This document shows, piece after piece, positions 1 to 64,000 of a stretch of 64,000 nt of DNA. A program made the translations under genes and the position numbers. The stretch covers positions 1 to 64,000 of the forward strand of contig QPGO01000225.1 of the NCBI GenBank assembly GCA_008632985.1, read 5' to 3'. The DNA comes from Psammoneis japonica. Lineage: Eukaryota. Every line of letters starts with the position of its first letter. Within the stretch, counting starts at the first letter, position 1. Below the pieces are notes generated by a model. The model saw only the letters and a program-made list of their open reading frames with translations. It ran no database searches and had not been told where the DNA came from.

Positions 1-3000
1 CTGTCCAACTTCTCACCTTTGCAGATGACACATCCCTCATTGGAGCCTGCACTCCTTGGGCCACACCATCCAGCCCTGTTTTTTTTAGTTTGATTTGGTG
101 GAACAAGACACCAGCAAGAATGCAACAACCTTGCAGCAGGATTTTTGCACATTTTTCACTCCAATCAGTTTGACTTTCTGCAGCAAACAGTGATGCACTT
201 GATGGCAAACACCACAACCGCATTTGTGGCACCATCTGGAGCACTCATTGCTTCAACTCGTGCACTGTTGTCACAACCCACCATGTTGTCCAGAAAACCC
301 AAAGTTCATTGTGCACCAGGGCAAGGCATCCAAATGCCAAAGAAGAGGATTGCACTCTTGCACAGCTGACACACATGCAAAGGAACTGCCAGAGGACCAG
401 CATTGCACACATGTCTGTCTGAAAAAAGTCATTTGCTGCCACACAGATTTTGGAGCAATGCAAGAAAGGATTGACACCCTTGGTCCACATGAAGGCAGCT
501 GCACCCAAATTTCCAACATTGTGGGCAGAACTTTCAACAGCAAGCATTTCTGGTGCTTCATCAATGCCCAGCTGTTTGAGAATTTGGAAGGACAGCACAC
601 TTCCCATGATGTCCAAGACACTGAGTTTTAAGGAGAGAATGGAGAATTGCGCTGTCAAGAACATGGTCCCTTCACCATCATTGATGGGCTGGTGGCATCT
701 CCCAAGTGAGAGTGGAGCACAAGAGAAAGTTGCCAGCAAAGAGAAGCAATCTGCACAGTTTTTCCAGTGAGACCAAGCACTTTGTTCATTGCTTGTTGAT
801 TGACTGGCAACTTTTGCATGGATTTGCAATTCCTCCAGGAAGAAAACAGCATGCAAATTGTTGAGAATTTGCCAGCAATGGAGCCCATGGAATCCATGGT
901 CAGTTGCCTCCCGGCTGTGATCTGCAATCACTGGTTTGCCAATGATCTCACCTGAGTCAACCACAGTCAGTTTCACATCCAACCTGCTTCCTTCTGTCTT
1001 TTGTGGCATCTGTCTTTTGTGGCACGCCAATTCAGAAGAATCTTCTTGCTTCATTTGGTCTCCTCAAACAAACCTGGTTTTGTCAGCATCTTGCTTGCTG
1101 TTGGACTGCCCATGTGTCTCAGGTTGTGCAGCCATTGCTTGTCTCCTGTGATGTTTGTGCATTGGAGTCAGCCTTGGTTTGAGCAAGAAGCAATCTGAGA
1201 TTTGTCAGATGAAGCCAGGTGGTGCAACCATGGCATGTCCAGAAGCACACACAGCTCATGGCAGCTCAGCATGTGCCTGATTGAGTTCTTGATGAATTGT
1301 GTGGTCTCCAGGGAAATGCTGGTTTCTGTGGTGTGGAGTGGCTGGAACAGCAGGAGGAGGTGTGACTCTCCCTGATGGGCACTGCATCTGTCCAACACCC
1401 CTTTGGACCAGTTGATCCAGGATGTTGCATTCTTTGGCAAGGATTTGTTCCCTCAGGTTTCACAGATGTTGAATCAGCTCCAACAATTCTGAGCCACACC
1501 CACTCATGTGCTGGTGTGGGTGTGTCAAGAAATGTTGTTGCTGATGTTTCATTTGCAGCTGCTCCCAACCAAGGCATCAGATCTCATTCCATTGAATCTC
1601 CTCAAACAAATGAGACCATTGCACTGCATTGGTTGCAATGCACTTCCAGGTGTGTTGAACCCTCCCAATGCCACATCAGCACAGGACCTTTCCCATGTCC
1701 CTCTGATGGGCCAGAGAGCTCCAATGTGAAAAGCTGTCTCAATGGAAATTGCACACACAACAACTTGTCTGATCACTGGGTTTAACAATGAGATTTTTTC
1801 ATGCCTTGATCATGAAACACCAAATTGTTGACAATTAAAACAAGGTGGCTGTTATGACGCAATTGTGGTGAATGACACACTGTTTGGTGAGGCTGCTTTT
1901 TGCAGTTCATGCCACCAAAAACAAACAGCAATGCTGGCTGAGGCGGGTTTTGCTCATGCTTTGTCTCCATCACCCCTTGCCATGCATTGCCAAAAGTGAG
2001 CTGCACCAACAATGGGAGGCCCAAGCAAACTCTCTTTGCCAAGTTCAGCTGTTGATGCCACTGTTTTGGAGCATTTCCTTGAACAAACACACAATTAACT
2101 CAATCATGTGTGGCAGTCCAACAAAGCAAGGAATGCTCCAGAAATTGATTCTGTGCTGTTGGCAAGCAGGTGTCATTTTGCCTTGTGCAATGGAAAAAGA
2201 GCTCTGCATCACTTGTGACAACTTGTTTCCAGGTCATGTCAATCTCACTCACTGTTTGTCATGCAGGGAGGGATGGCTGCCACCAGAAAAGGTGTTGAAA
2301 AAACTTTCCAACAGCAAGAAGAAATCTGTGTTCAAAGGGATAGACCAGTTTCAGCGGGTGACCAAAACACTTGCCAGAGACTTTGATGAACTCAACAGTT
2401 GTCTAACCCTCTGGAGATTGATGCTGAGGCTTTTTCTGCCATCAAACACAGCATGCCATGGAGCCTAAAGCACGACACACTTGATTTGCAAATGGATGGA
2501 GTTGACAACAAAATCTGGGTGCTGGGCACAGCCAAGAACAGAGGCACTGCAGTGGTGGATGTGTCACCCTTTTCGCTGTGCAACGGCATTGGCAACACAG
2601 AAGTCAGGCACATCCAGAAGATGGGAAAGAAATGCATGATGCCAAAAGTTTCCTTTTCCATGAAACAACACAAAGAGGTTGTTCAAGCAGCATGGAAAGG
2701 GCACACAAAAGCTCTGTTGCAATGCTGCACCCCTCCAACGTGTTGTTGCTTGGCGCATCTTTGGAAAAAAAAACATTGGAAAATCTGAGCTGCTTCAGTT
2801 TGTCACGTTGGAACTCCAAGCCAGTCACCTGGGATGTTTGCCACACCCCAGCTGCAATGCATGTTGGGAGGGGGGAACACAATCCCCTTGCTGCTGCCTT
2901 TGCATGACACAGCAAATGTGTGCTTGGTGTGCCATTGCCATTGTCAGCCAAAAAGGCAGTTGTGGCAACAGACATCAATGACAATGGAAACTCTGCTGCA

Positions 3001-6000
3001 AACTCAGCCCCAATGGCCAAGATGGTTGTTGAAGAGGATTTTGTTGACAAAGCCAAGTTGCATTTGGAAGAAGAGGATGAGTGCTTCATTGATGATTCAC
3101 CACAAGCACTGTCTTGGTGTCCTTGCAAGAATTCTCCCTGGATGTGTCTGCTGTGCATTCCTCCCAACCCACAACAGATTGTGGAAAAACATCAACAGAT
3201 TGTGACTTGCTGTCAATTGAACCTCCTGATGATGGCAGCAAACCTTCATTGTCCTTGGGCTCTCTTTCCTTGGAAACAGCAGACCCAAGCATTGTGCTGC
3301 AGTTGTTTCAATTTAGCCAACATTGCAAAGTCATGGCACACTCATTGATTCACCAGCATTCATCCAAATGTTTGCTGTCCAAATGTTCCTCTGTGATGTC
3401 AAGGAAAGAGTCACGTTGCACCGTCCAGTTCTTGGTGGAATGACAACAAAGCAAGCAGCATCCTCCATGCAGTTGGGAAATGGGCGAAGTGGCAACCTCA
3501 TTGACAGAAGAACAAAGGTGGCAGACAACACATCCAAAGCTCACAGTGGCAATCAATCATTTTGAGGTCAAGGATTTGTGTTTTTAGCAGGTGGTTCCAA
3601 AAACATCTTAAGAAGACAGAGCTTTGCAGAAACCACCAAAAAATTGTTGGCATTGCCACACTGTTGTGTGCAAAACAGGAAGTGAAGAGAATCATGGAAC
3701 TTGGATGTGCTGCAAAGTCTGGACCCAGAACAACACCCTCAGAATGGGCCAACAACAAACTGAGACAATTTAAGATGTTTGAGAATGCATTTCTGAAGCC
3801 AAGTGTGAGAAAAGCTTTCCTTGTTTGAGGACAGGGACAATGTTTCATCCAATCCAAAAGACATGAACATCAGATGGGCAAAGGGACTCTCCAGTGGCTT
3901 GAGGCTTTTGTCTTCCTTTGAAAGCACGCCTTTCATTGCAGCAAGTGTTGCAAGCAACAAACCGGGATGCTCTTGGCCAGATGGACAAGTCTGGTCAGTG
4001 ATTCCAATCTTGAACAGAGCTCTTGCAGCATCTTCTGATCACTTTGCCTCTTGGGTGCATGTGCAAGAACAACTCCAAAGCATCTCTTGAACTCAGCTTT
4101 GTCAAATGGCTTGGGAAGCCCCTTGAATGTGAAGGATGGTTGATTGTCTGTTGTGCGTTCCTCATCACCGGAATGGTTGTGACACCACAACAACTTGTTT
4201 TCCAGGACTTGGCACAGGTGGGAGAAGGGACAGAGCAGATGCTTGTAAAGGCCCAAGTGCAAGGCATGCAACAGTTCCCAGGGGAGCATGCTGAATGTGC
4301 CATGCCTTCCTCTGCCATTGGAGAGGTCTCACAACACAGGACAAGACAAATGAATGGTGTCTTGTTCCACCAAATTGAAGCTGAACAAGGGATTGCCACC
4401 AAAAGTGCTGTCGCATTTTGCAGCCCCCACTCATCTGAGATGTGTTGCCACAGTGGGAGTTGCAGTGACAAGCCATGCTGTTGTGGCCTTTTGCATTGCC
4501 AATTGTCAGGCACAATCAAAAGTGGAGATGGACAAAGCCAAGAGATGGCACCAAAGTTGGGAAACCAGTCTTTTGCTTTGACAGTTGAAGCAACTTGGCA
4601 AACATCTCCCGAAATGTGCCATGGCAGAACTTGATGCATGTCTCCTGTCTTGGCTTTGACTGATGGTCAGTGGTGCACACTCATTGCTTGTCTTTGGGTG
4701 TGGCAGCACCATTCCAAGTGTCAACCAAAGGGAGTGGCTGCAGCAATGCTGGTCACTTGAATTGCCAAATGTTGCAAGGACAGGTTGTGCTTGCAAACAA
4801 CCCATGTTGTTGCAAAGGGTGGAATCATTGAACAGCACAACTGGGCAAAGAAGAAAGTGTGACTCAGAAGAGCAGCCATTGCCCAGCAGCTCTACAAGGG
4901 AACAATTGACATCATGCTTGGCTTGCTTCCACCAGTCTCCAGTGGCAAAGGAGTCACAAATGATGCGCTCATTTGTTTTGGGGCAGCACTTCTCCTGTTG
5001 CAACCATTGACATGGCTGGACAACCTGGGATTGTGGAACACCCTTCTCACACAATGCAGAAAGGAAAATTGGTGCACATGCACTGGGGGGGACTCGGGTC
5101 CCACATGTGCACAGCAGAGCACAAATGGGCTCTGGGCCAACACAATTGGAGCACACGGCTTTCATGCATCTCAAGGCAATGAAGCAGGACAAATTCTTGC
5201 ACTCACAGTCACTCTCCTTGGCACAAAATCATTGCACAAACCATGGGAGAGATGATGCTTTTTTGTCACAACCAACTCTTCCTCCACTGGGTGGAGCTTC
5301 TTGTTGGTGGTGTTGGTTGCACAAATGTGCGGAGGTTGCAACAGTTGAGCTTCTTCCATCTCCTCAAAATCCAGTGCATCAAGCAGTGCAAGCCATCATC
5401 TTCTTTGTGGACACTGCAATCTTTGTTGTTTGTCCTTTTCCCTCGCAGCAAGAATGAAGTGCAGAGAGGATGCCAAACTCCTCCTCCAAAAATGGTGTGT
5501 TGTCATGGCAGAAACCATCATTGGATGGGTCTTGAGCAAGAGGGCCAATGCTGCATTCAGCCAGCACTGGTGCATGATGAGAATCAACAATGTCATCATT
5601 GAAGGAGAGAATCACTGACAGGAGAAAATGGAAAAAGGTGTCATGGATCATTGTCATAAACAGACAGGGACATGAGTCCTTTGGCCCTTGAATTGGGGGA
5701 ATGGTTTGAGAGGTCCTGGTGCATCAAAAGAGCTGAAGGCACCATTGTTGCTCAGGGAGTGGTTGGGAGAGGAAGATGCATTGTTTGGGCCAAAATGAAA
5801 GAAAAAAAACTGGGGATGCCTTTGAAAATGTCAGTGGAGAGCACACTGCAACTTGTTCCAGACTTGTGGCAGGTGGTGCGCACTTGCCCCTTTTTCGCAC
5901 AAGACCAGAATTTTTGTGTGCTGTCCATTTTGAAAACAATCAATGCCAAATTTGCCATCAAATTTTTTGTGATTGAATGCAGTCTCCAAGGTGGAAAATT

Positions 6001-8170
6001 AGAAATGCATGTCTCCGTGCAGATGATTGGGAAAACACACCAAGGGATTGAACCTTGAAGCTCACTCCTTGCCTCACAAAGCAGCTTGTCTTTTTTGCAA
6101 CTTGTTGAATCAGTCCAAAGGCTTGTGCTGCAGAAACTGACACAAAAGAGCGTCGCAGTGACTTGCAAACAAATGCCTCACTGCAAAGGCATTGGCCACA
6201 AGCACAAATCTGGCACTGGGCATGACCAACAGCCCTCAAGGAGAAGGAGATGCATCCTTCTGTTGCATCCTTGAGGAATGCACCCACTTTGGCTGCTGGC
6301 TCCAGCAGAGATGTTGCTGCTTTGCATGGCAAGCACAACATCTCTTCTGTGGTCGAGGGTGCAACTCTGCCAAAATTGCAGTTGGCGCTGCTGTTGCTCC
6401 CAACCAAAACCAAAACAGAGACAACAGTTTGCATGTGCAAGAATCTGCCAGTGCATCATCTGATCCAGCCCATGCCACAGTCCAAATGCATGGTGCAAGG
6501 AGCCACCTTGGCAATTTCTTGCAAGCTGGGAACAAGACATGGTGCTCTGGTGGGAAACAGCTTTCTCAGTCATCCAAAGCAATGGAGACGAGGGTCACCA
6601 TTTGACAACAGACTTTGACTCCGGGGCTGGACTTGTCATTGGCAACAGATGCATCATTGTCATCATCATCCAGGCACTGCATGAGCTGTGCAAGGAGAGA
6701 GAAGTCAGCATTGGGGTGGCTGGAGGGGATCCCAAGAGTGCCAGCGGGATGGCTGTTCCATTTCTTTCTTTCTTTTGGAGAGCAAGAAGGAACCTCATTT
6801 GAAACAAAACAATGATGCAATGCAGTTTGAAAAGAAAGTTCCAATCTGGGGCTGGCAGGGTCTGAGAAAAGACTGGCCATTGGCAGATCCAAAGCTGCTC
6901 TTCTTCCAGCCATTTCCAGGCAGACCAACCCATGTGGAAGAGGCAAACTGTTCTTTCTGTTTCGGCTTGAGGCACCTGTGCATCAAGTCATGAACTCTCA
7001 AGTGGACAATTGCCAAATTCTTCATTTTCTGGCAGTTGAGATTCTTGCAAGTCCTCAAAAATGTGTTGCGCATCTGCTCTTGCACCAGCTCACAACAGCA
7101 GGCTGTTTTTTCATTCTTCAGCAGATTCTTTGCTGCACTGCACTGGATTGAACTTTGGCGCTGGTGTCAATGCTGCAAGCACAAACATCTTTGGCTTCAA
7201 GCACTGAGAAAAGACAAGCTTGAGCCAGTGGCAGGTGTTGCCAAACTTGGACTCAAGAACATGAGGGAGGAAAAGAGTCCTCACTGTGGATGCAGCAATG
7301 CTCTGAGTCTGTGCAACAAAATTGCTTTGGCAACGAGGGTGCTCTTCTGCAGAAACATCGAGCAGCTGCAGAGACTCTAGACTCAACAAGCCAGCACATG
7401 CAATCCACCATGGCTGTCAGGTTCTTGCCACAGCATGGGAGGTTGTTGAAGGCCTCCAAAACTTTCTGGTGCTGAACCACAAACTGCCCTGTGGCCTTCT
7501 CTTTCTTCTTGTTGTCCAACTTGCAGGTCCAACCATGGCTTCAAACACAATGGAGCCCACATTTGCATCCAAGAGATTGACCTGCAATGTCATTGACAGC
7601 AACCACTTGCTCAAAAAAGCTGCACAATCCATTCTTGGGATTGTGCTGCAAATGAGGCAGAGCTGGAAAGCCGGTGGTGGGCTTCCACGTGAAGCCAGCA
7701 ATGAAAGCCTTCCTTGCCATTTGCGCCTCTGTTGTCCTCTTGAGTCGACGTTTGGCAACACAACATTGGCCATTGCAGCTTGCAAGTGCAGCTGCATTGT
7801 CATCCTTCTCAATGACTTGCAAAAAAGAAGAAAGGAAGCTGGCAACTCCGGCCTGTCTGCACTGTTCCCATCATGAAGATGCTCTGGGAAGCCACAGAAC
7901 CAGACCGACTCGGGATTGTTGGGATCCACATGATTGTTTTCTGTTAACTTGATGACAGCGTTGAACATTTGGCTGAGGTTGCATCCGTTTCCATCATCAT
8001 TGCTCGCAACCATCGAGTTTTAAATCCCTCAAAGCTGAGTCCTTGCTGTTGAATGCAAAGGTGTGTGCTGCGCCTGACATGCCGCTGCCACCCTGTGACT
8101 GGCTGATGTCTTTCTCTTCTTGGCCAAGGTGTTTGCACAGGAGGGGCATGGTCCAATGCTTCACACAACA
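1..8170. other. TpA/CpG-depleted hypermutated domain (decayed repeat or TE sequence, family not identified)
   Basis: TA is very rare over 8 kb and CG is rare, with TG/CA in excess. ORFs in all six frames are nearly Tyr-free and Cys/His-rich. No coherent protein family recognised. Confidence 0.8.
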
Positions 8171-10338: not shown

Positions 10339-10808
10339 GAGCTAATAAAATCAGACATGAATAGATTCAATATTCATTTTCCCGCCCTTTTTTGACGCGC
10401 GGAAATTCGAAAATATCCAGTATCGCTAAAATAGAAGATCAAAGATCTCATTGCGCTATAGCTGGCCTGTCATTTTTTGTCCCTCCAAATACAGTATGTA
10501 CAGTACGTACATTTTTCCTCATGAGGGACTACAACAGGATTACCAACAAGATTTGGCGCGTTCCTTTCGCTTTCAAGTTCTTTCTGAGAGCTAATAAATA
10601 CAGATATGAATGGATTCAATGTTCATTTTCCCGCCCTTTTGACGCGCGCAAATTTTAAAACATGGACAGTGCATTCAAAAATGTGTGCAGTGTCGATAAA
10701 ATCAAAGATCTCAGTGCGCTGGCCTGTCATTTTTTGTCCATTTCCTCATGACTGCGACTGACAACAGGATTGCCACCAAGATTTGGCGTGTTCCTTTCGC
10801 TTTCAAAG
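10339..10808. repeat. Imperfect ~240-bp tandem duplication at the island/hypermutated-domain border
   Basis: Shared blocks GAGCTAATAAA, TTCATTTTCCCGCCCTTTT, ATCAAAGATCTCA, GCTGGCCTGTCATTTTTTGTCC and TTCCTTTCGCTTTCAA at ~10339-10577 and ~10588-10808. Confidence 0.85.
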
Positions 10809-13276
10809 ATCGACCATGGCGCCACCTCTGAAGCCTCCCAAAACACAGGAAGATGCAAAGAAGGCAAAGCTCTCTTTTGTGACCAACTTCTTCTCACAAA
10901 AGGAACGTTGGGTGCCCCTGCCAACCCAGAAGTTGGGGCAGCACACAAGGCAACAAAGGAAGGGTGCAAAACACAGCGCCTCTTGCAGCAGCTCCAGCTT
11001 GTTCCAGACAAGTTGAGCGAGATGCAGAGGTGAAGATCTCTTTGTGCATGTGATCAATTTTCATCACAAGATTCCAAGTGGCATCTTGTGGGCCTTCTGC
11101 ACATCTTGGTGCTGACTTGGGCGGCACTCAAAACAAAAGACTGCTTCGGCCCTTTTCCTCTGAATGCATCACATTGAGAGAAGTGCCGTGAAAAAGATGC
11201 TGGGGCAGCGGGGCCAATCATCAAAATGACAGCACATCATCTCAGCCAAGGTTGGAATGACAGGGGTTCAATGCGGAGCTGCGAGTGTGCTGCGTGGACA
11301 GGCCAGGCTCAAGAGCCGGCTCTGGAGAGCAGGGAGCTGGTGTGCCCGTGGTTTTCCCATCATGTGGCAAGGTTGAAAGCAGTTGAAATGCTTGGAAGAT
11401 GCAAACAAGAAGAAAGAAATGAGAGCCAAGCTGCAAGAGCTGCTTCCAGCTTCAAAGGCAAAGTTGCAAGAGAAGAGCGGTGACATCAGGAAGCCACACA
11501 CAAGAGGGGCTTGTGTGCCAGGTTGGGTTCTTGGAGCACAAGAGCTTGTTGGAGAGGCAGCCCATGCTGCGCAAACTCCTGAGAGTGCTGCCAGCACATT
11601 CCCAGAGCTCCTTCAGCTGTTTTTTGCAGCATTTCTTGGTGCGCCCATGCCCAATCTTTTCTTGCACAGCCACTGCATGGCTCTCTCTTTTTCTTTTTCT
11701 CTTTTCCTAGCACTGTGCTTTGCTCCACAAATGAGCCCCTGTTTTGACCCTTCTTCAGCTCTTCTTTCATTTTCCCACACAAGCGCAGCTGCATTTTCCA
11801 TCTGCTCTCCAGCACCAGCAGACCAAATGCCATGTCACTTGCCAGAGCCAGCCTGCTCTTCAAGCAACACTCAGCTTTGAGCTGGCTTTTCCATGTGACA
11901 CTCATGATGACAGCTGGTGAGAAGCCATGCACCTCCCCATGTTTCCCTCAACTGTTGCCCTTCCTCCAAGGGCTGCACCTTGCCATTGTTTCCTGTTTGT
12001 TGGCTCTTCTTGTTGAAGCTGAGCTGGCCTGTGTGGGCTGTGCACACACAACACAAGGTGTGTCAGCATTGGCCAGTGGCACTTGCCCCAGACAGCATCT
12101 GTGTCAGCGCCCATCTGCAACAGCAGCTTCTGCTGAAAAACTGATTCTTGAGTTCTCCACCAGCACTCTCATTTGACATCTCCTGTGTTTGTGCTTTGTC
12201 GATGTGGCGCGTGGCACATTGACAAGCTTGGACAACACAGCAACTCTCCAGTGCAGTCTTGCCCCTGCTCCTTGCTTTGCCCCCAGGATGTCACAACTTG
12301 GAAGCTGATGGGGAGATGGAGATTTTGAGCCAACAAGCCAATGTTGCCAAAAGGGAATCCTGTGAGAGGTTTCCTGTGCTGCTCTTTGCACTTGCCCTGG
12401 TTGCTGTGGCAGCTGTGATTTGCCTGGAAGTTCTCAATGAACTCCAGTCTTGTGACACAGCAAAGCCTGCTGATGCCACAGCACAATTTAAGATTGGCCA
12501 CACAAAAAGGTGCCAACGGGTGCTCTCGAGCTCCCAAAATGTTTGTTGAGAAAAAGCGCCCAGAACGCAGTCGCATGATGAACAATTGTTTTTTGTGCAC
12601 ACATGTGTTTTCCAACAAATTGCTTTGACCATTGAAGTGTTTTACCAGCCTCCATTCATTGGGAAACAGGAATTGATGAACAACACACACATGGCCAGAA
12701 AGCGCTCAATGAGAGCTTTCGATTAGTGTCCACACCTGAAAATTGACCATTCGAGCTGTTTCTAGCTCTGTTGGCACCTTTCCATGTGGCCAGTCTCATT
12801 TGTGCAAAGCAACCAGATGATTTGCTGCAAAGAGCAGGACAAAAAAAGGTTGGTGAGATTGGCAATGAACCCACACTTGTTGGCAAAGCAAGTGTCACAA
12901 AATCCACCATGTCAGCATCCAAAGCATCCTCTTGTGAACAACTCCAGTGCCACTTCCGGGTTCCACATGCTTCCTGCTCATTCCCAAAGCTCCAACACAC
13001 TCATGATGCTTGCAACCATGTTCCACTGTTCACATGACCCATGCTCATTGGGTTTGTCATTGTCTTGTGACAGCCTGCCCATCACTCTTGGTGTCATTGC
13101 CACCTGTTTCAGGACTCTTTGTGTCATCCTGCAAGCTGCAAGTTGCAAGCGTGCAAATGCACATGCTTGCCACTGTTGCTGCAATCAACCAAATTGTTGA
13201 GTGCACGTGCAGCTCCATCAACACTCTTCACAAAATGCTCCATGTGAGTTGGACAAGACTTTTCTCTGTCATTTTG

Positions 13277-50916: not shown

Positions 50917-50929
50917 GGTGCTTTCGCTT

Positions 50930-53388: not shown

Positions 53389-56300
53389 GGAAAGCAATGC
53401 AAACATGGCAATGTCACATCAATGGGTGCGATGAATGGCCCATTCAAAGGATGCCCCAGCACAGTCGCAGTTGCCAGCCACACTTCACTGAAACATGAAC
53501 TTGACATCTGCACGAGTGTGGTCTCACACACAGATCTGAGGTGAAATGCATGCACTTGACAATTCACCATGATCTCATCGATGCAATTGCACCTTCTCCA
53601 CAACATGTGTCGTTTCTCCCGATGCGACAGATCCCATTCGCGATTCTCCATTGGGATCACAGGCTTGTGACTGAAGATTTAGCCAGTCTTTGTCTTCATC
53701 CCCAAGACAAAGATTGGGGCCATTCAGACATTTCTGTGCATCCCATTCCTTCAATCACTTGGACCCCCAAAATCTCTTAATCCGATGCCTCGCCATGGCT
53801 TGTGTTGATGGTGTTGGATTGCTCAATCGAGAAGTGCCGCAAGCCGCAGCAGAGGAACCATCTCTTTGTCGAAAGTTGTGATCGAATCTTGTTTGTTGTC
53901 TTGAGTCTTGGTCTTGTCGTGTTTTCGCCATTGCTTGCATGCGCCATGGCATGACAAATTAATCGCATGTCAACAAGTCACTCGGCATCAATGGATCCTT
54001 TCCCTCAACTGACCATGCGCAGCGCGATCTCCCCCAAATGTGTGCACGACTCAATCCGTTGCGCTGCCAAGTGTCACCTTCTGTCCATGCATGCATCGCG
54101 TCATCGTCAGCGTGCATGGCCTTTCACTCGCTTGTTTCATCTCGTTGCTCATTGCTTCGGCGATCTCAGAATGCAGGGTGCAATGAGAAACCAACAGAGT
54201 CATGAAAGGGGTTTGGTTGGATGTCATCTGGCGATGCGGCAAAGTGGTGTGGATGATGATTCAGAGGATCTTCAATGTCACACATCCTCCGGGGTCCCAT
54301 GCAGTCCAGCAGGTGACATCCACTGGCATGAGCTTGCGGATGGCTCTGTAAGTTCTGAAGTGGTGACCAGTCGACCACCAACATCCTGTCTCCTTGATGG
54401 ATGGTCGTGCCCTCAAATGGTGCTTTGTGGTGTGGCTTGGTGTCATGCCAATGTGGCAAGTCGCTGTCTCACACCCACATGTGTCACAGTCACTTCCAGG
54501 CGATTCCAAGCCTGCACTCACTGACTCGTTCTTTGCCTCTGTCGCACGCCGGCACGTGTCGTCATTGATGGCATGGGGGTCACCTCGGTCGTCGATTCTT
54601 TTGGTGACAGACTTCTGAGCTTCGTTGCATGGAAATGGTCGAAACTTTGTTGAGCTTGCAGTGAGCGTCCTCTGGCTCATCTCTGCCTTCCTGGAACTTC
54701 TTGTGGTTTGGGCATCTGGGCTGCGCGTCAAGCTCAATCGATCCCTTTGTGGCGTGTCCGTGACAAGAAGAGGTGGTGCAAGCTCTGGCAACAATGTGTC
54801 CGCCAATGCTTTGGGGCCACCTTCCCTGATGCCGCGCTTTGGCATCTCATCCATTCTCTCCTGTTGTCTTCCTGTGGCACAGCTGGCCAGTGGTTTCTTG
54901 ACGGATGCAGGCGCACCGACACGGTCCAGGCATGTGTGTTTCTGCATCTTCTTGTTGTTGGGGCCTGCAGGTGCTTTTGCCGACTCACACTCTTTCCCAA
55001 GCTCAAATGTCGTTGGGCTTCCTTGGGGCAGCTTTGGACCTTTTTCGAGGCAGGAGGCTGTGCATGTGATCGTGGCGGAGTCGTCCCAGGTTGCAGGTCA
55101 TGATCATCATGGCACAAGCTCCCCTCTCGCCGCATCAGGCACATGTGTGGTGAAAGGAGAGGCTCCCCTTTTGAGGCAGGAGGAGGCAATGCATGGGACA
55201 TCAGCAAAGTCGTTTTGAGTCGCAGGTCATGACCATCACTGGTGCAACATGTGCTCCCCTTTTTTGATGCTGTGGCATCCGATTGTGGCTGGTGGTGCCG
55301 GGAGGTCAATGGATTGTGCATGTCCTGTTCCTTGTGTGCCAACCTCGCTTTTTCGTTTGCCTTGTCAATGCCCACGGTGGATCCTGCATCTTCATGGCCC
55401 AACACAATGCGTGTGTCATCAGCATCGGTGTGTGGAGGGTGAAAGAGATTCAGGATGTGTGGGGCACCACTGTGGGTCGACTTCGGGGAACAATCGGGGT
55501 GACACAAACCCGACTTGTCATGGCAGTTGGTTTCCACACTTTTCCTTGGCAAATCCGAGCAGTCCTCTTTGGCTGTGGTTGGGGCTTCAGGGTTCAGGTG
55601 AATGTCTGTTGGAATGGAGCCAGTCTTGGTGGTCTCATCCGATGTTGCGTCTTGCTCCAACTCTTGGTTTGCCTGCAACTCTAGAGTGATGCTGCCTTGA
55701 TCCAGCTCATTCTCCTTTTTGCCGCGAAACATTGTTGTTCGCATGTTGCATGATCCCCCCCGTTCGTGGTGAAAGTGAGAAGGGCGGTGCGGTGTGAGGC
55801 TTTGGCGGGTGAAAGCACAGTCAAGGGCATGCAGGTTGGGAGTTGGGTTGCGCGATCTGCCCGCGAAGGCTGCACGGTGGAGGGGAGCTTGTGTGTTGCT
55901 TGGTTCTTTCAATGGTGGAACAGCATTTTGCTGCATCACCGTGGCTTGCGCAGGAATGGAGCACGCGGTTGGGGCTGTTGAGGTGCCCCTTTGGGTTGCA
56001 TGGTGCGAAGCAGAGATTCTTGATTCCGCTGGCAGGTACACAGATTTTTGCATCTTGCCATCGTTGAGACTGGCTGTTGCTTTCATCTCAAAATGCTCAT
56101 TCTCTTTCTCAGCCTTGGATGCTGTTGTGCCACCTTGGGACAACTTGGGTGGGACAGGGATTGAATCGACTTTTGTCACCGATGCGACGTGTGTCTCTTC
56201 TTTTGCTGCCGGGAATGAGTGTGGTGAGCAGATGCTCCGAGTGGGTGTTTCATGATGACGGCGACGTGTGCTCCCCTGTCGCCACGCTGGGAATTTGTTC

Positions 56301-58249
56301 CTCTTTGGTGCGTCTCGGCTGATTCCACTGTGTGTGCTTGCTTTTCCACGACAATTGGTTGTGCTCAGACTGTTCCCCCATTTCGTGGCAAAGGTGAGAA
56401 GTGGACTCGGCCATCGGACGTCATGTGTGGGGTGACCTCCGGTGGGTGCATGTTCACGGGTGAAGAGTGAGCGTCGGCGGGAGCCGGAGCGGGTGGGTGG
56501 TGGGTCTGATGGTGGTGCCACAGCTGGGGCATCTTTGGCAGCGGAGTCGTTGTAAGTCGTTGGTGCGGTTGCAGAGGTTGCAATGGGTCTTGATGCCGCG
56601 GTCATCCCTTGGGCACAGGGGTGTGTTTGACTTGGTGTCACGGAGTCTAAACTTGCAGTGGTCTGCGATGCACTGTGTGTGTGCATGGCAGGACCTGGGG
56701 TCAGTGGTCCCGATGGGCATTGGTGCAAAGCAGGGGTTGTGGTTGACCCCAACCTCGCAGTCGCCCCTGGTGTGCAGGGGCAGTTTGGACTCGCAGGAGT
56801 GGAGCCCGTGAATGGAGCATGGGTGTCTCCAGTTGTTCCATGGCATCTTGGGGTGTGGGTGGAACCTGGGGTGAAGGTGCCAAAGAACAGGGGGTTTGCC
56901 GGGGTGTCAAGTGGTTTACATCCTTGATTGGAAGTTCTCAAGGCTTCCTGTGACTGCCTTCTGTTGGATGCATCTTGGATTTCTCGGCAAATGGTGCATG
57001 TGTTCTGTTTCTCAAATGCAATGAAATCTTCTCTGTTGAATTCTAAGACACTGCCAACTCCTGACTCAGTCGTTGGCACTTCTGACAGGTGTTTTCCACA
57101 GGCCCTGATGCGGATGGCGTCGCTTCCAAGGCTCTTGCAGCCTTCGCACCCTGTGATGTCAAACACGTTGCCGTGGGGCACAGTGGCAAATCTGACAAAC
57201 CAATCAGGTGTGGAAATGCCATGATTGTGCAAGAACAGGGCAGTGGATCCTTGTAGACCCGGGCCAGCATCTCCGCTTGTAAGGTGGCATTCGCAGGTGT
57301 CGCAAATGTCAGTTTCCTTGAAGGCCACCACATCATCCCAGTCATCACAGGCGGTCATGGTCAAGAGTGGATTTGCGCAGAACAAAGCAGTTAAGGTCCA
57401 CTTCAAGACCGATTTTACAGTGTGCTTGTCACTGGTTTTGTGCTCTTGTGCCTGAGCATGTTGCAGTGTTGTGTTCACTGATTGGTGGCGTCATTCTTTG
57501 TGGCCTCTGTGACCTTGTCACGGGCACTCCTCATGCCCGGCTTGAGTGTCAAGAGCCTGTTCTTTGGGACATGAAGCTCTGGTGCTGACGGTGTCGTCAA
57601 TCCAGTGTCCTCCACCAGATCCGCAAGAGGCGACACGGGCTCTCTTGGCTTTCGTTCAACCGCCTTGACGATTGCTGGTCGCCTTGAGGGTCTCGACATG
57701 GGCGCAAACCTCCTCGGCTTGCTCAACTTCCTCAGCTGTGTGTCGGCAGGAGTGCTTCTACTCCTGACTCTCGATTCGAATCTTGATGCTGGACGTGTCC
57801 TGGTCGCTCACAGAACGTCTCTCTTCGGCCAAAAAGCGATTGGCTCTGACAAAGTGGCAGTTGGGAAAGCAATGCGAACACAGCGATGTCGCATCGATGG
57901 GTGCAATGAATGGCCCATTCAAAGGACACCCTGGCACAGTCGCAGTCACCAGCCACACTTTGCTAAAATGTGAACTTAACATCTGCACGAGTGTGGTCTC
58001 ACACACAGATCTGAGGTGAAATGCATGCACTTGACAATTCACCATGACCTCATTGATGCAATTGTGCCTTCTCCACAACATGCATCATTTCTCCCGATGC
58101 GACAGATCCCGTTCGCGACTCTCCATTGGGATCACAGGCTTGTGACCAAAGATTTAGCCAGTCTTTGTCTTCATCCCCAAGACAAAGATTGGGACATTCG
58201 GACATTTCTGTGCATCCCATTCCTTCGATCACTTGGACCCCAAAATCTC
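53389..58249. mobile_element. ~4.9-kb segment bounded by ~385-bp direct repeats, lying between the two halves of the non-LTR RT
   Basis: 53389-53776 is similar to 57864-58249 (GGAAAGCAATGC...GGACCCCAAAATCTC). The interior holds a long low-complexity minus-strand frame at 54734..57478. Confidence 0.55.
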
Positions 58250-58900
58250 CCAACAAAGGCAGTTGATGGGAGAGGTGCTGGTTGCAGATGTGAGAATTTG
58301 TGTTTTGGAGGCATTGAGCTTGATTCCAAATTGGGGGCCACAGGGCAAGCATCACAAGAGCATTTGTTGAAGCAGTTGGAAATGTCAAGGAGAAGGAGAG
58401 CTTTTGGTGCAGAGTCTGGTTGAAAGAAGCATCCAATGTTGGTGCAAGCAGCACCCACAAGGTGTGGTTCAGGCCGCCTTTGACACCAATGACCCCAAAT
58501 TGGCCAGAGATGAGGAGGTTGGCAGCAAAGGTGGCAGCAAGGAGGAACACAATGAGGGTGCACAGACGACCCTCCGCAGGGCTGTTCCAGCACTGACCAG
58601 TCAGAGTTTGGAAAGGTTGGATGAACCCTTGTGTGGGGCAAGGAAACAGTTGGATGAAAAAAGAGGTTTGATGGATGTGGGGATGTCTGCTGCAAGAATG
58701 AGGTCAAGCAAGCCTTTGAAAGTGAGCAGGCAGGGGTGTGAGGAGGACATTGGTGCAGAACGGCCATGAAGGGCATGGCCTTGAAGAGGTCAGTGGAGTC
58801 GGCAAAGGCACCGGGCACTTTGCATCTTGTCCACATGTCAACACAGGCTCAAGCTGCAAGCTCAGTTGCAGCAGGCAGGTGGGTCAGTGCAAAATTTTGA
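58250..58900 (-). mobile_element. Non-LTR retrotransposon RT, N-terminal motifs
   Basis: GTALRRV (RPI..G..LRR), GQFGVIGVKGGL, ALLLLDISNCFNK (RT motif A). Confidence 0.7.
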
Positions 58901-60209
58901 AACATGCAATGTTTTGGTTCCTGGCACAAAAACAAGAAATTCTGCACAGAATTTGCGCAGCCACAATGGCGAATTTGCATCGCATCCACCGGTTTTTCAC
59001 AAGGTGAGTCACTCGGGACGTTGTTGGCATTTGTCTGTGGCACCACTGTGTGTTGGCGCAATTTTGAAAAGTGCCACTCCACGCAAGAAAATTGATTCCG
59101 ATTGCTTTGGTGTGTGAGTCTGCTGCTGTTGTCATCGTTCCGGCATGTTGTTTCATCAAGTTTCTTGTCATTTCCCTCCTCTCATCCCTTGACCTGTGCA
59201 CAATTTGTTTCACACCAGATGCAGACAAAAGGCCCTGATGTGTGGTGTGCAGGGCGCCTTTGGAGTGTTTGAGACAAGCTCTGGATGTTGTGGCTCATGG
59301 TTGGTGTGTTTCCATGAGACATTTGCGGCCCGGCACTTGTTCCATTTGTTTCTTGGTCCACATGCAGATTCTTCCTGACAAAAGGGCCGTGTGCTTTGCT
59401 TTTTTGAATGTGTTGATGATGCAAGTGGTGGAGTTTGTGGAGATTGTTCTTTTTGCTCTTGCCCTTCACAAGCTGCAACAACCAGAAAAGAAACAGGACA
59501 ATGACTGCCATTTGGCATCCTTGACGTTCCATGGCAGAGTGTCATGTTGAGCATCTTTGTCACATTGTCACCATGGACCAATGTTGACAAGGCCTCATGC
59601 TTCACCTGGCCACACACTCTCCAAGCATCATTCTTGCAAAATGAGCCACCCTCAATGGCTTCGGCAATCATCATGGGGTTCTTGTGGATCAAATCAGGCA
59701 TGTGACACCACTTCTTTAGCACATGTCCAGGATTGCAGAGCAGCTCCATGGCAGCTTGTAAGGCTTTGTCTTTTTGTTTGAGCTCCTTCTTGTGCTCCTC
59801 TTGTAAAGCATGGATTGCGTCACAGACCAACTCTGCTTGCTTCCTCTTCTTGTTGATGGGACTCATTCTTCATTTTCTCATTTCTGTTTTGGACAACGGC
59901 TGCCAGCCAGTGGAGAGAACAAGTGCTGTCAGTTCAATGTCAATGACACATGGGTTTGATGTGCCAGCAAGGCAGGGCTGCACTGCACAGCATGCACCTG
60001 GCTCCACTCTCTGCTCTGCTGCAGAGAGCCTCAGCGGCTGCTCTTTAAAGTGGAGTGGCATGAAAAGCAAGTGATGTCTAGATCATGAGCTGCCAGCACT
60101 CTCTGTGGTGAGCTGAAGAAAATTGGCAATTCATGTTCCAATGGTCAACAGTTTTCTGGAGCGGAGTGTTGCTGACATCAGCTCCAACAAGCTCCACTTT
60201 TAAGTGCTG

Positions 60210-60420
60210 CATTGAGGATTGCAGGTTCTGTGGCACATTGGTGTCTTGCCAGAGCTGTCAAATGGCTGTTTAACTCCCAACAGTGCATGTGAGTGAGGCA
60301 GGGCCACACTGTACAGCACATGCCAGTGGCTGCCGGCAGTGTCTCTGGCAGCCCTCATTGAGGATCCCAGGCTCTACATGGGTGTCTTGCCAGAGCCGTT
60401 TGACTGCTGTTTAACTCCCA
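60210..60420. repeat. Imperfect ~141-bp-period repeat upstream of the non-LTR element
   Basis: GGTGTCTTGCCAGAGC.GT......GCTGTTTAACTCCCA at ~60240 and ~60381; CATTGAGGAT occurs twice. Confidence 0.7.
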
Positions 60421-60648
60421 TTGTTGTGTGAGGCACAAGAGCATGTTGTGCAGCATGCAGAGTTGCTGCTGATTGAGTTGACAGGCAGTGGCTTTTCACC
60501 TGTGCACAATCCGTGGACTCTGCTGTGCAGGGAAGACAAATTTGTCTCAGTGCTGAATGGCCAAATTTACACTTGGGTGAAATTGTGCTGCAAGCTCAAA
60601 TTCAGCTGATGTCTGGCATTTGTTGATGAATTTTCAACATGCAGCAGC

Positions 60649-63400
60649 ATGGAGGAGCAAAGCAGTGGTGGCACCTCCCAAGCCCAATTGGCTGAGTTGG
60701 ACAGTGCCAACAATGGCAACACTGGCGGCTCCGATTTGACGCCCGTGAAAGCCCCTGCCAAAAGAGCAAGAGTGGACCTTGGGGGTCAACCTGCCAAACA
60801 CATGGTTGCTCATGCTGCAAACATGACCAACCACACACCTCCTGCATTTGCTTCCACAAATGCAAGAACAAGGAAGGGCTCTCAACTTGTGGCTCAAGTG
60901 ACATGCATTTGGGTGAGAAGCTGCGGAAAACTTCTGACCTCCCCAGAATCCAGCCTGCTTCAGCCAAAGATTTCTCAACTCATTGACAACACCCCTGATG
61001 CTGCTGACAAACAAGACAAAGACAAGGCTGACACCAAAGCCAACAAAGAGAACATTGCACCCAACAATCAAGAGATGGATGCTGACAAGAGCAGAGGCGG
61101 CAAGGATGTTGACACTGCCACAGAGGGGGGTGTGCAGTTGGAGGACAGAGATGAGGGCTCAGAGGGGCCTGTTCTTCTGTCAATTGATGACACCAATGTT
61201 GCACCCAACAACTTCAATTCAGAAGCATGACAGATCATGTGCAAGATGCATGGCAAGACACATCATCTCAGTGACCAGCGCTGAGCCAGATGGTGGAACA
61301 TTGGTTGACAAGACACGGCAAGAGCGTTGGCACGCCGGCTGGTGCCCCACCCACAGCAATGATGCAAGCCGTGCCAAATGGCACAGCTGGAAAACAATTC
61401 ATTGCAATGTTGGCAGAGGTGCTGCATTGAGTCACAACACAGAAGTGGAGCTCAGAAAGGTTCGCAGTGTGCCAAACGGTCATTTTGCAGCGGGGTTGCA
61501 ATGCTGCTGCCGGAGCTTCAAGATGTCCATGTTGCTGACAGCAGTGCTGTCAAGACCACCACAATGCAGGACTTGATGAATCTGATGCTGATGCATTGTC
61601 AGAGTGGCTTCTGCATGGTAAAAAGGCCAGCAGATTGCTTGGAGAAGTGTGGCGCATGTTTGTAAATTGGCCAGCAAATGAGTCACCTCCATGTGCTGCC
61701 AGCTGTGCAATCATGCTGGCACAACAACTTGTCGCCCCAGACAAAAATCTGGTGGTGCATCTGGTTGGCATGGGGTGTGTGTGGCAATGAGCAATGAGCC
61801 ACTGTTGGGGCCACTCTCTCAGTTGCAGGAGCAGAGGCCAAAGGCCAAGGAAGCTTGTGGGACAGACCAGCTGTGCACTCTTGACCAGAATCAGGCATCA
61901 AAGGCACCATCCATGCAATGAGCATGCTCTGGGAGCAACACAAATTCAAAGATGACTGCAGGTTTCTCTTTGTTGACACCTCCAATGGCTTCAACAAAAA
62001 GAACAGGATCCCAATGCCACACAATGTGAGACACCTTTAGCCATCTGGTGCAAGGTTCACTTTCAAGCTGCAAGCATTGGAGCATCTTGACCATCCATGG
62101 GAACTTTGGGGTGGCCTTCAATGCAGCAATGCAATTGGCACAACAGTGCATGGACCAGAGTTGAGCAAACATTTCAAGGATGCATTCACCCCTTGGCATG
62201 CCAATGACTCTGCAGCAGCAGGAAAATTCAACATCCTGCTGATTTTTTCTTGAGAAACTCTCCAAGCCAAAGGCCCCAGGCATGGATGCTGCCCTGCTGT
62301 CAACTCCAATGACATCCTGACAGTCCCAGAGTGCAACTTGGAAAAAACACCAGCGCAACATTCTGCCAGTGCCAATCGGTGAGATCTTGGCTGATGACAA
62401 CCACCCAAGAGTTGCCCCATCTGCCATCCCAATCAAAATTTTTGGGGCTGTTCATCTGTCATCCCATGGAGTCTGCAGCTCACAACTGCAAAGCAAGTGC
62501 TCTCACATGCTCTCCCATGTGATCAAGTCACTCCATGGCTGATCCCAGCCCTCTTCCACAGTCCACTGGGACACACTGCATGCAAAGTGAAATGAGAAGC
62601 AGCCAAATGAAAAGTTGAAACACACGAGGAGACCCTCAAAATGACTCTCAGGACTCTGCCAGACCTCAAGGCCAGAGCTGTCAAGCACAGCAGTGTGACT
62701 GTCAGTGCACCCGTCAACACTGAATTGCACGGAACTGTCGCGCCAAGAGTTCTGCAATGCGCTCTTCTTTTTGTGGCATGGCGGCACTCCGCCAGACCTC
62801 TCTGAGCACTGCAATCTGATTGGCAAGGCTTGCAAACCTTCCCACACATGCAATGAACCTCTCATCAACCCCGCTGGTTGTTGCATCTCAGGAAGCCCAC
62901 ACACCTTCTCTCCAACAAGTCCAAAGATGGCAATCACAAAAATCTTCTTGCCATGAGATTTTAGGACAGAAAGACAGACATGGTGTTGGGCATTCACGCT
63001 CCTGATGAGGGCAAAGTCTTGCCTGTCTGAAACACCAGAAGAGGTCCTGGCAATGCTGTGGCTGGCGTGGCACCCCCAGAGCATTGTAGAGACAATTTTT
63101 GCTTCTTCTCATCTTGGGGCTGCCCACTCTGGCATGCACTGGCGGTGCCCCCCCCCACCAAGCACCACAGCGTGGCAAGACATTGCCACACTGGTGACAA
63201 CACAAGTGACCAAGATCAAGGGAAGGCATCTTTCTTTGCACTGGCTTGGTTCATTTTGCTGCCACAGCAAGCAAGGCCCCGCTGGCTTGAGTGGAAGATT
63301 CTGGGTTCCCTCTTCTCAATTTTTCTGTGGATCCCCATCTTGCTCTGGCTGATTGTCACATCCATGAATGACACAAGAACAGTCTGATTCCATTGCTTCC
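60649..63400 (+). mobile_element. Second degenerate non-LTR retrotransposon (RLE/CRE-like RT)
   Basis: GFLFVDTSNGFNKKNR (motif A), PSGARFTF, WHANDSAAAG (WYADD), GPRHGCCP (GP..GY.P), TELSRQEFCNAL followed by a Cys-rich knuckle. Confidence 0.7.
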
Positions 63401-64000
63401 CATCTTGCATGGTTTTAACTCTCATGATCATGGATCACGCATGTCCTCCACCCCCTGCACTTTTGCATCAACTGGCAATGACAACAATGTTGCCCCTGAT
63501 GAAGTGAGGATTGCCAATGAGCACAAGCACCCAGCTGAGGTGCAAGGTGGTTGAGGCAACATGGAACAAAACAACTCAGATGAACAAGAAGAAGAGTGCT
63601 TGATTGAGCAGCTTGTGTGGGAAGATTTGAGGAGCAACATCTTTGAAATGGTTAAAAAGGTGACCAAGAAACCATGCCATCCAACCAGTGAAGGAAATGT
63701 CCGCTGTTTTGCCAACCTCAAAGATTTTTTATTTTGTTGCCCGGGCAATCATGCTGGGCTTGCTTTTGCAATGTCTGGGAAAATGTGCATTGTGATGATT
63801 TGGCTGTCATTAAAATTGCCTTGACACATGTCTTGTTTGCAACCCAAGACCAAGAACCAACTCAAAAAATGCCACAGTGCCGTGCACTGCACACCATCAA
63901 TTCTTTGAACTTTTCTCATCTCATCCACTTGCAAGATTCTCAAGGACATCAACATGCACATTTGTGGGGAGTTTGCTGTCATTGTTCTGACACATGGACC

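Follow-up and report, generated by a model that had tools for sequence, protein, structure and literature searches.

Introduction

To our knowledge, until a preprint of 2026 the known dinucleotide-specific hypermutation that genomes inflict on their own selfish DNA ran from C to T, as in repeat-induced point mutation (RIP), the decay of 5-methylcytosine (5mC) and the action of APOBEC enzymes. The subject of this report is a stretch of diatom DNA in which a different step is lost: in a 64,000-nucleotide window of Psammoneis japonica (contig QPGO01000225.1), TpA is nearly absent from long domains and TpG and CpA are in excess. "The window" means this whole stretch, and all figures below refer to it alone and not to a genome-wide scan.

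The closest described system is the chlorarachniophyte Bigelowiella natans, in whose mutation-accumulation lines 231 of 302 nuclear mutations are reported to lie in an integrated giant virus and virophage (Mettrop et al., bioRxiv 10.64898/2026.01.13.699255, April 2026). According to the text of this preprint, 230 of the 231 mutations in the viral regions were transitions of A>G or T>C, every GC-biased one falling at TpA, with a de novo rate about 1000-fold above background that was active in some lines only. The B. natans genome is further described as holding 124 clusters that are poor in TpA and rich in CpA and TpG, the TpA-poor coding sequences being enriched in reverse transcriptase (RT) and DDE domains. 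An ADAT2-like DNA adenine deaminase is proposed as the cause, and the 5' U preference of RNA adenosine deaminases is discussed (10.64898/2026.01.13.699255). The first-pass annotation of the present stretch had taken its mutational process for an undescribed one, which does not hold given that TpA-only A:T>G:C hypermutation has been measured in the integrated viruses of B. natans. The preprint is the one description that we found, and among titles and the openings of abstracts we found no report of the process for diatoms.

Our data suggest, with a probability that we put at roughly 0.6, that a TpA-specific mutator has acted in place and on both strands on transposon-derived and other silent, non-genic nuclear DNA of this diatom. 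The evidence for this reading, and for the explanations that compete with it, is given below.

Results

TpA is depleted in sharply bounded domains

Over the whole window TA occurs 949 times, with a ratio of observed to expected dinucleotide count (o/e) of 0.23, and CG 1960 times (o/e 0.51); CA (6160; o/e 1.58) and TG (6289; o/e 1.53) are in excess. Profiled in 1-kb bins, the window has 0-8 TA per kb (o/e 0.00-0.14) at 1-8, 11-22, 28-34 and 51-64 kb, 4-16 TA per kb (o/e 0.07-0.26) in a partly depleted part at 34-41 kb, and 17-55 TA per kb (o/e 0.34-0.85) in three islands at about 8.2-10.7, 22.1-27.75 and 41.24-50.97 kb. The domains are as follows.

1..8100, D1, full depletion: TA 2.5 per kb (o/e 0.036), CG o/e 0.125; no Pfam match among open reading frames (ORFs) of at least 90 amino acids
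8200..10700, island I1: TA 38 per kb (o/e 0.54); two minus-strand ORFs without a Pfam family
10750..22050, D2, full depletion: TA 1.6 per kb (o/e 0.026), CG o/e 0.174
22100..27750, island I2: TA 42 per kb, ordinary also in the non-coding flanks
27760..33718, D3, full depletion: TA o/e 0.051, CG o/e 0.306
33719..37457, minus strand, tandem copy 1 of a 3.74-kb unit, partly depleted: TA o/e about 0.19, CG o/e about 0.8
37458..41201, minus strand, tandem copy 2, 98.5% identical to copy 1; ORF split by a 1-bp deletion
41244..50970, island I3: TA 43 per kb; 2OG-Fe(II) oxygenase, SRA-domain and arrestin-like ORFs
51000..64000, D4, full depletion: TA o/e 0.056, CG o/e 0.372

Pooled over 38,361 bp, the four full-depletion domains hold 102 TA against 1620 predicted from the rate of the islands (753 TA in 17,829 bp), for which the Poisson P underflows, and TA-free gaps reach up to 2237 bp. 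Judged by the positions of TA, the boundaries lie at about 8.02-8.18, 10.70, 22.03-22.10, 27.75, 41.20-41.24 and 50.97 kb, with a step from full to partial depletion at 33.72 kb. The switch from TA-free to TA-dense DNA spans at most 100 bp: one final gap closes at 22025 with TA dense from 22099, and the situation is similar at 41183/41244 and 50969/51348. The alternation of TpA-depleted domains with gene islands of ordinary TA content, as the first-pass annotation had described it, is confirmed with coordinates that were right to within about 100 bp, as is its statement that loss at 33.7-41.1 kb is only partial (TA o/e about 0.19).

The depletion is specific to TpA. In the full-depletion domains TA has an o/e of 0.026-0.056 while AT still occurs 48-58 times per kb, against 61-74 in the islands, and AA and TT are not depleted (o/e 1.0-1.4). 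GC content is nearly unchanged, at 0.475-0.515 in depleted DNA compared to 0.465-0.479 in the islands. CpG is depleted as well in all four of these domains, whereas the islands have an o/e of 0.81-1.11 and the partial domain one of 0.80. TG and CA reach 99-116 per kb in depleted DNA (o/e 1.6-2.0), up from about 73-79, and are nearly equal to each other (111 and 115 per kb in D1, 111 and 110 in D2, 100 and 114 in D3), and the sum of TA, CG, TG and CA is 234-257 per kb in all domains and islands. TA and CG thus drain into TG and CA, an interconversion among the four pyrimidine-purine steps. CpG loss had earlier been set apart from the loss of TpA; it is correct that CpG decay cannot explain the TA loss, but the two losses occur together and co-vary in space.

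These features allow a comparison with the two best-known systems. As in RIP of Neurospora and other fungi, the transitions are dinucleotide-specific, fall in duplicated or selfish DNA, hit copies independently and contrast sharply with genes. RIP, however, makes TpA from CpA (C:G>T:A), lowers GC and creates stops, whereas in this window TpA disappears, GC stays level or is slightly raised and TAA and TAG are removed, so that the RIP signature is absent. The decay of 5mC is resembled by the CpG o/e of 0.125-0.37 with a matching gain of TpG and CpA, and by arginine-to-stop and arginine-to-glutamine changes in a retroelement remnant described below; a contribution of such decay is suggested by composition alone, methylation itself not being observed. 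CpG decay cannot remove TpA, and it is TpA that is lost faster here. That neither RIP nor CpG decay alone accounts for the domains, as the first-pass annotation had held, is supported by these results.

Duplicated copies differ by changes made in place

Two pairs of duplicated sequences lie in depleted DNA, namely the tandem units of the partial domain and a pair of direct repeats in D4 that resemble long terminal repeats (LTRs). A third set, two short tandem duplications within an island, serves as a control.

53380..53776, plus strand, LTR-like direct repeat, left copy, 397 bp
57855..58249, plus strand, LTR-like direct repeat, right copy, 90.4% identical to the left
44106-44316 and 44758-45023, short tandem duplications in island I3, units of 112 and 130 bp, 94% and 91% matches

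The tandem copies differ at 56 columns, comprising 18 events between TA and TG/CA, 19 between CG and TG/CA, 10 columns in five TG-versus-CA doublets, six other transitions, two transversions and one indel. Between the LTR-like repeats there are 39 differing columns with 10 TG-versus-CA doublets, and 32 of the 36 transition columns lie among TA, CG, TG and CA, where 48-49% would be expected if transitions were random. Transversions make up only 2 of 55 substitutions in the tandem pair and 1 of 37 in the LTR-like pair, and transitions outside the four steps 6 of 53 and 4 of 36 columns. Enzymes of the APOBEC/AID type (C>T in TC, CC or WRC) were considered and rejected, as the dominant loss is that of TA and other transitions are this few. 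In the control duplications of island I3, TA is kept and 10 of 19 substitutions are transversions.

A TG-versus-CA doublet is read most economically as one ancestral TA (or CG) that was altered independently in each copy, on different strands. That the copies differ by such doublets argues that the changes arose in place after duplication. The opposite order of events would be hyper-editing of element RNA before integration (A to I, ADAR-type with 5' U) followed by reverse transcription, or descent from TA-poor masters. The 5'-T preference seen here does resemble the 5' U of RNA adenosine deaminases as treated in the discussion of the B. natans preprint, one depleted block is a retroelement, and D4 is strand-skewed. 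However, the LTR-like copies, which would be identical at integration, differ by 10 doublets and the tandem copies by five. For the LTR-like pair we estimate, from survival in the domain, about 12-15 ancestral TA and 20-25 ancestral CG, which gives about 9-10 doublets if all loss followed duplication; the closeness of this figure to the 10 observed speaks against both editing of an RNA intermediate and a TA-poor master copy. Moreover, TG and CA are about equal in D1-D3 instead of forming a sense-strand-only pattern shared between LTRs, the loss extends to a DNA-transposon-like gene and a BRCA2-like fragment, and depletion covers entire domains beyond the transcribed units. Pre-integration editing is accordingly very improbable in our judgment.

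Tyrosine codons polarise the change

Two coding sequences in the depleted DNA have relatives with which they can be aligned.

28025..30527, minus strand, Ty3/gypsy-type pol remnant (RT, RNase H and weak upstream matches), from tblastn and Pfam
34018-37641, minus strand, intact ORF of 1207 amino acids in tandem copy 1

At nine columns of the pol remnant where at least 60% of relatives have tyrosine (Tyr), the remnant reads cysteine (Cys; TGY) six times, histidine (His; CAT) once, phenylalanine (TTT) twice and Tyr never. The same comparison holds two changes of arginine to stop and two of arginine to glutamine, the signature of CpG. Its 315 residues include no Tyr, 26 Cys and 15 His, and the proteins of the islands are 1.8-4.4% Tyr. 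The 1207-amino-acid ORF has Tyr at 7 of 1207 residues compared to 32 of 985 in its relative P0123; where 27 Tyr of P0123 align to it, the ORF has His at six, Cys at five and Tyr at three, and its 11 changes from Tyr to Cys or His face a single case in the reverse direction. Two metagenome contigs that encode relatives of this gene have ordinary TA content (o/e 0.28-0.73). Judged from these comparisons, three independent lines (Tyr in pol, Tyr in the 1207-amino-acid ORF and the doublets between copies) agree that the direction of change is from TA to TG or CA. The first-pass proposal of A:T to G:C transitions at TpA, as a separate process confined to delimited non-genic domains, is thereby supported and given a polarity by Tyr codons and doublets.

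The same erasure is found in public protein records. Among the 150 public proteins closest to the pol (RNase H) ORF, nine contain at most 0.62% Tyr; these (P0126, P0127, P0129, P0160, P0226, P0228, P0251, P0259 and P0272) have 0-0.62% Tyr and 8-11% Cys plus His and belong to elements about 50% identical to that of the window. P0126 is 69% identical to the normal protein P0125, whose 32 aligned Tyr read His 16 times, Cys 12, phenylalanine 3, valine once and Tyr never in P0126, while three normal relatives keep 15-21 of the 32. A scan of viral contigs with P0126 gave no match.

Depleted sequence is present in sequencing reads

A pattern that is dinucleotide-exact and domain-wide could also be an artefact, if heterochromatic TpA held a modified base that sequencing systematically miscalls (as it would 5mC at CpG) and the assembly inherited the errors; the runs that contain the stretch come from one sample and study, with the library type unrecorded. 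We compared the window with contigs of a public sequencing run, X1, built from exact 31-letter words. These contigs cover all 30 bins of 14001-33700, and seven pieces of them are listed here.

Piece 1, depleted, 2355 bp: 7 other letters
Piece 2, depleted, 1518 bp: 4 other letters
Piece 3, depleted, 801 bp (754 on the stretch): 4 other letters
Piece 4, depleted, 682 bp: 3 other letters
Piece 5, depleted, 751 bp: 13 other letters
Piece 6, depleted, 644 bp: 11 other letters
Piece 7, island, 4733 bp: 5 other letters

The depleted pieces have a word depth of 44-66 (57-66 for the examples of 1.5-2.4 kb) and the island piece 57.6. Because X1 contigs carry the depleted sequence at single-copy depth, and strand-dependent miscalls would break contigs, a base-calling artefact is argued against. 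It is further contradicted by the element copies, which differ site by site in which TA was changed and in whether TG or CA resulted, and by the independent public protein records with the same replacement of Tyr by Cys and His. We give the artefact hardly any credence.

The six depleted pieces differ from the window at 42 letters in 6703 bp compared to 5 in 4733 bp for the island piece, an excess that would hint at ongoing change but that paralogues could cause. X1 and the window differ in 40 listed places, which amount to 38 events, of which 19 lie among TA, CG, TG and CA, and are not informative. Differences among 846 contigs placed on the stretch are mostly transitions (199 A>G, 212 C>T, 170 G>A and 180 T>C), each kind of transversion occurring 13-29 times. 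Contigs of a second run, X2, lie on islands only and one of them looks like a spliced transcript; the parts that X2 leaves uncovered support no conclusion. Of a third run, X3, no contig was placed on the stretch, and no RNA run is listed for 19001-29000.

Neighboring bases order the loss of TA

The TA that survive are not a random sample. With R for purine and Y for pyrimidine, survivors in the RTAY, mixed and YTAR classes number 2, 35 and 65 in the full-depletion domains compared to 231, 406 and 114 in the islands (chi-square 135, p 5e-30). Survival relative to the islands, by four-letter class, is as follows.

ATAT: 0 (0 against 49)
ATAC/GTAT: 0 (0 against 124)
ATAG/CTAT: 0.005
GTAC: 0.016
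ATAA/TTAT: 0.024
CTAC/GTAG: 0.032
GTAA/TTAC: 0.10
CTAG: 0.20
CTAA/TTAG: 0.21
TTAA: 0.41 (28 against 32)

An additive model fits all ten classes, in which the loss of A in T-A-N on each strand (as -ln survival) depends on the next base in the order T (roughly 3.3), C (2.1), G (0.8) and A (0.45). Erasure first reaches those TA that stand before a pyrimidine (TAY, equal to RTA on the complementary strand); the best survivors are TTAA and CTAG. This order recurs in the two partly depleted tandem copies, with RTAY, mixed and YTAR counts of 4/24/12 and 7/28/15 compared to 40/64/15 in an unmutated relative, L001. Regeneration of TA from abundant CA was rejected as the cause of this order: ACAA/TTGT (681) and TCAA/TTGA (592) are about equally frequent, yet there are 5 surviving ATAA/TTAT and 28 surviving TTAA. 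The survival of CpG has only a mild dependence on context (0.17-0.58).

Contents of the depleted DNA

We scanned 21 long ORFs and then 300 of the 308 stop-to-stop ORFs of at least 90 amino acids against Pfam, the remaining eight all lying beyond 62.1 kb; scans that read through stops covered 19.0-22.1 kb (minus frames) and 53.7-57.9 kb (all six frames). Among the 300 ORFs only two matches in depleted DNA are above chance, RT_RNaseH_2/RT_RNaseH and the BRCA2 helical and OB1 domains, and the read-through scans of those two regions gave nothing further. Matches to Amastin, zf-ChsH2, ADAM17_MPD and Enterotoxin_HS1 were rejected as chance (E-values of 0.002-0.005, below the curated cut-offs), and no tRNA or Rfam family was found within the window.

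The RT_RNaseH_2 match lies at 28549-29064 on the minus strand (E 2.9e-16), and an exhaustive search with this RNase H ORF gave 27,334 relatives. With the best 150 of the pol relatives, tblastn matched 28025-29407 and, weakly, 29709-30527, and nowhere else in the window. The element is multi-copy, with a word depth of 510-1380 at 27.8-31.7 kb compared to about 58 for the single-copy island, and the jump in depth coincides with the TA boundary. The 1207-amino-acid ORF of the tandem unit has a single word-indexed relative, P0123, at 35% identity; language-model features (Atlas) place it with DUF6729 and Mutator-like clusters at 0.94 and 0.80, which we take as a lead only to a DUF6729/Mutator-like, transposase-like protein. 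Two further features lie in the fully depleted domains.

20567..21133, minus strand, BRCA2-like fragment of about 90 amino acids inside D2, TA-free: PF09169 E 1.6e-6, PF09103 E 3e-4
54734-57490, minus strand, ORF of 918 amino acids with a low-complexity, Tyr-free product and no Pfam match

The BRCA2-like fragment spans positions 129-176 of 187 of the helical domain, then positions 2-34 of 123 of OB1, and resembles a defunct part of a host gene or a sequence that was captured. No further BRCA2 domain was found in the minus frames of 19.0-22.1 kb with stops read through, and a word-indexed protein search with its ORF gave no longer relative. Between the LTR-like repeats, about 4.1 kb hold no Pfam family in any frame. 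Long Tyr-free, low-complexity ORFs in depleted DNA, such as the one of 918 amino acids, are read as phantom ORFs that the loss of TAA and TAG would have enabled. No viral genes were seen in the depleted domains.

D4 has a strand skew at 51-58 kb, where the plus strand is rich in G and poor in A, unlike the near-symmetric D1-D3: the composition at 51-52 kb is 40% G and 15.5% C, and at 54-57 kb A makes up 16-17%, with 118-138 TG per kb compared to 62-90 CA. Either a composition peculiar to the element or a preference of the mutator for one strand could account for this skew.

Few transposable element (TE) proteins are thus recognizable, and the read depth of D2 at 14-22 kb is only 1-3.5 times that of single-copy DNA, so that for most of the depleted DNA the status of "repeat" or "foreign" is unproven. 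The first-pass statement that all identifiable TE coding remnants are in depleted domains is correct but has little behind it, since it concerns one pol remnant and, as a lead, one transposase-like tandem gene, while most depleted DNA matches nothing and a fragment resembling a host gene is depleted too. Its description of the process as repeat-targeted is supported only in part, read depth putting some of the depleted DNA at 1-3 copies.

Rates and targeting of the loss

TA is lost ahead of CG. In the partial domain TA has an o/e of 0.19 compared to 0.80 for CG, and between the tandem copies 18 of about 54 TA sites have changed compared to 19 of about 196 CG sites. The changes are unevenly spread along the tandem unit: at unit positions 1-2500 copy 2, there the inner one, is more mutated (12 compared to 3), and at positions 2500-3745 it is copy 1, there in turn the inner one (20 compared to 2; Fisher 1.8e-5 for the overall pattern). 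TA and CG changes alike are densest around the inner junction (about 36.2-40.0 kb), the outer flanks being spared; candidate causes are a gradient in chromatin, pairing between the copies and an edge effect exerted by the neighboring island.

The joint loss of two self-complementary steps with one spatial pattern is an argument for a route that starts from thymine, in which a TET/JBP-like dioxygenase would oxidize thymine at TpA and 5mC at CpG, and 5-hydroxymethyl- or 5-formyl-uracil would then mispair with G to give T>C. One enzyme class would cover both losses, the motif can equally be read as RTA with T as the target, and polymerases are reported to be able to insert G or C opposite 5-formyluracil (PMC2673420). 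On the other hand, no TET/JBP gene or modified base is seen in the window, CpG loss lags behind in the partial domain, the mild context dependence of CpG is unlike that of TA so that two processes fit better, and ordinary 5mC deamination is enough for the CpG part. We consider the thymine-side route unlikely, though a serious rival.

Where depletion ends is informative as to its target. Its edges fall at the end of the multi-copy element (27.75 kb) and at the end of the tandem repeat (41.2 kb). Non-coding DNA of the islands is TA-dense, at 22099-22169 upstream of the Kelch ORF, at 26861-27752 downstream of the hydrolase ORF and at 41244-41557. As for duplicated sequence, the tandem pair, the LTR-like pair and the multi-copy pol are affected and the island duplications of 112-130 bp are not; the low-copy DNA at 14-22 kb is depleted as well. 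Edges at element ends, a spatial pattern shared by TA and CG changes, TA-rich non-coding island DNA and the depletion of low-copy and host-derived DNA lead us to infer that what guides the mutator is silent chromatin, probably in its 5mC-bearing state, and not repetition as such.

An untargeted neutral bias across the genome, from TA and CG to TG and CA, with the islands spared by selection on their genes, would account for some of the same facts, in that depleted DNA is without recognizable functional genes and is in part low-copy, and every island has genes. It does not sit well with TA-dense non-coding parts of islands, with switches in TA content over at most 100 bp at the ends of elements, with island tandem duplications that keep TA and have an ordinary spectrum, or with a partly depleted tandem element that adjoins full depletion with a step change at 33.72 kb. 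Such a bias is improbable as an explanation.

Genes of the islands

Among the genes of the islands are the following.

22172-23377, plus strand, Kelch, island I2
23544-25238, minus strand, ankyrin-AAA ATPase, island I2
25753-26814, plus strand, alpha/beta hydrolase, island I2
41560-42225, plus strand, AlkB-type 2OG-Fe(II) oxygenase ORF (PF13532, E 1.1e-7), island I3
42533-43477, plus strand, SRA-domain ORF (PF02182, E 4e-17), directly downstream of the oxygenase ORF, island I3

The ankyrin-AAA ORF is 77-78% identical to marine transcriptome proteins, and every relative with a name comes from a diatom, Mayamaea, Ditylum, Pseudo-nitzschia, Nitzschia and Cylindrotheca being among them. A contig of run X2 joins 25236 to 25374 and skips 25237-25373, which looks like a 137-bp intron of this gene, the first exon then lying upstream of the long ORF. 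Among solved structures, the SRA ORF is closest to TagI, a restriction endonuclease directed by 5mC (6ghs, E 5e-8). The oxygenase and SRA ORFs, both of types that read or repair DNA modifications, adjoin the partly depleted tandem repeat; this placement is probably a coincidence.

Discussion

The process suggested for P. japonica shares several features with that of B. natans. A:T>G:C changes are confined to TpA and give TpG or CpA depending on the strand, and they fall in delimited regions; the TpA-poor, CpA- and TpG-rich clusters of B. natans are enriched in reverse transcriptase and DDE domains, and here a pol remnant and a transposase-like gene are found. The two differ in host, a diatom (stramenopile) compared to a chlorarachniophyte, and in targets, which where identifiable are of the transposon type here, with no viral gene seen, and are viruses there. 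Depletion here reaches a TA o/e of 0.03-0.06 over blocks of 6-13 kb, compared to the Rho of 0.45 given in the preprint for a region of nucleocytoplasmic large DNA virus origin, and an ongoing rate was measured there whereas here only the footprint in sequence is seen. The text of the preprint, supplementary tables aside, does not contain the words "context", "trinucleotide", "CpG" or "diatom". What is new here compared to B. natans is the TAY/RTA context, the co-depletion of CpG and the independent changes in duplicated copies. The process is of the same type, now in a diatom, and with one recent precedent it is not a new category.

In the mechanism that we propose, TpA would be converted to TpG or CpA by an A:T to G:C transition in silent, non-genic DNA after its duplication or insertion. 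The mutator would be aimed by a silent, methylated chromatin state, to which the CpG decay points if it reflects 5mC, and not by repetition alone. TG and CA would be immune end states, and both processes may for this reason be near saturation. As consequences, Tyr codons are turned into Cys or His codons and TAA and TAG stops erased, and it is this erasure of stops that accounts for the very long spurious ORFs of depleted DNA; a loss of TATA-like signals is predicted in addition.

As for the chemistry, to which we give less weight, adenine in DNA may be converted to hypoxanthine by a deaminase of the TadA/ADAT type, as proposed for B. natans. In natural substrates of TadA and ADAT a U precedes the target A. 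Like ADAR, TadA and ADAT enzymes, the mutator would produce A>G with a preference for 5' U or T, the point on ADAR being taken from the Discussion of the preprint. An engineered TadA variant is reported to prefer A in a YAC context (PMC13109818), which resembles TA followed by C, but in the window T, not C, is the most favored +1 base. These enzymes act on RNA or, when engineered, on single-stranded DNA, whereas the changes seen here are fixed in the chromosome, on both strands, and postdate integration.

Several points weigh against the proposed mutator or limit its reach. No enzyme, base modification or ongoing mutation is visible in one window. Since TpA is its own complement, deamination of adenine and a thymine-side route would leave the same sequence and are indistinguishable here. 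We know of no natural ADAT2/3 substrates with the +1 order T>C>G>A. The island baseline used for the contexts is mostly coding, and the L001 control is one gene. No pol lies between the 397-bp repeats, whose status as LTRs is unproven, and D1, D2 and most of D4 are without a recognizable TE protein, with just 1-3.5 copies at 14-22 kb. Finally, X1 may be the assembly's own sample; with its library type unrecorded, it excludes strand-specific miscalls but does not amount to independent material.

A broader and more tentative idea, which we regard as doubtful, is that of an ancient RIP-like defence across the stramenopiles, alveolates and Rhizaria (SAR), at least in Rhizaria and stramenopiles, in which an enzyme is recruited to 5mC-marked chromatin and acts on TpA first (TAY/RTA) and possibly on CpG. 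If this were true, silenced insertions would be driven irreversibly to a state free of TA and CG, without Tyr and poor in stops, and diatoms, which are transformable and have small genomes, would be a system for finding the enzyme.

The polarity of the change, A:T to G:C at TpA, is opposite to that of C-to-T hypermutation, and it is found at saturation in a diatom, from a group that is of major importance among primary producers and amenable to genetics. Should the process be general, diatoms would offer a second lineage in which to find the enzyme, a natural DNA adenine deaminase or thymine-directed mutator that would be of interest for base editing, and the TAY/RTA motif would be a sharper means of testing candidates. 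It would also account for the failure of homology-based TE annotation to find old diatom repeats, and for the long Tyr-free phantom ORFs that gene finders report in them, such proteins being already public, and the o/e of TA would be usable as a clock for the age and silencing of insertions.

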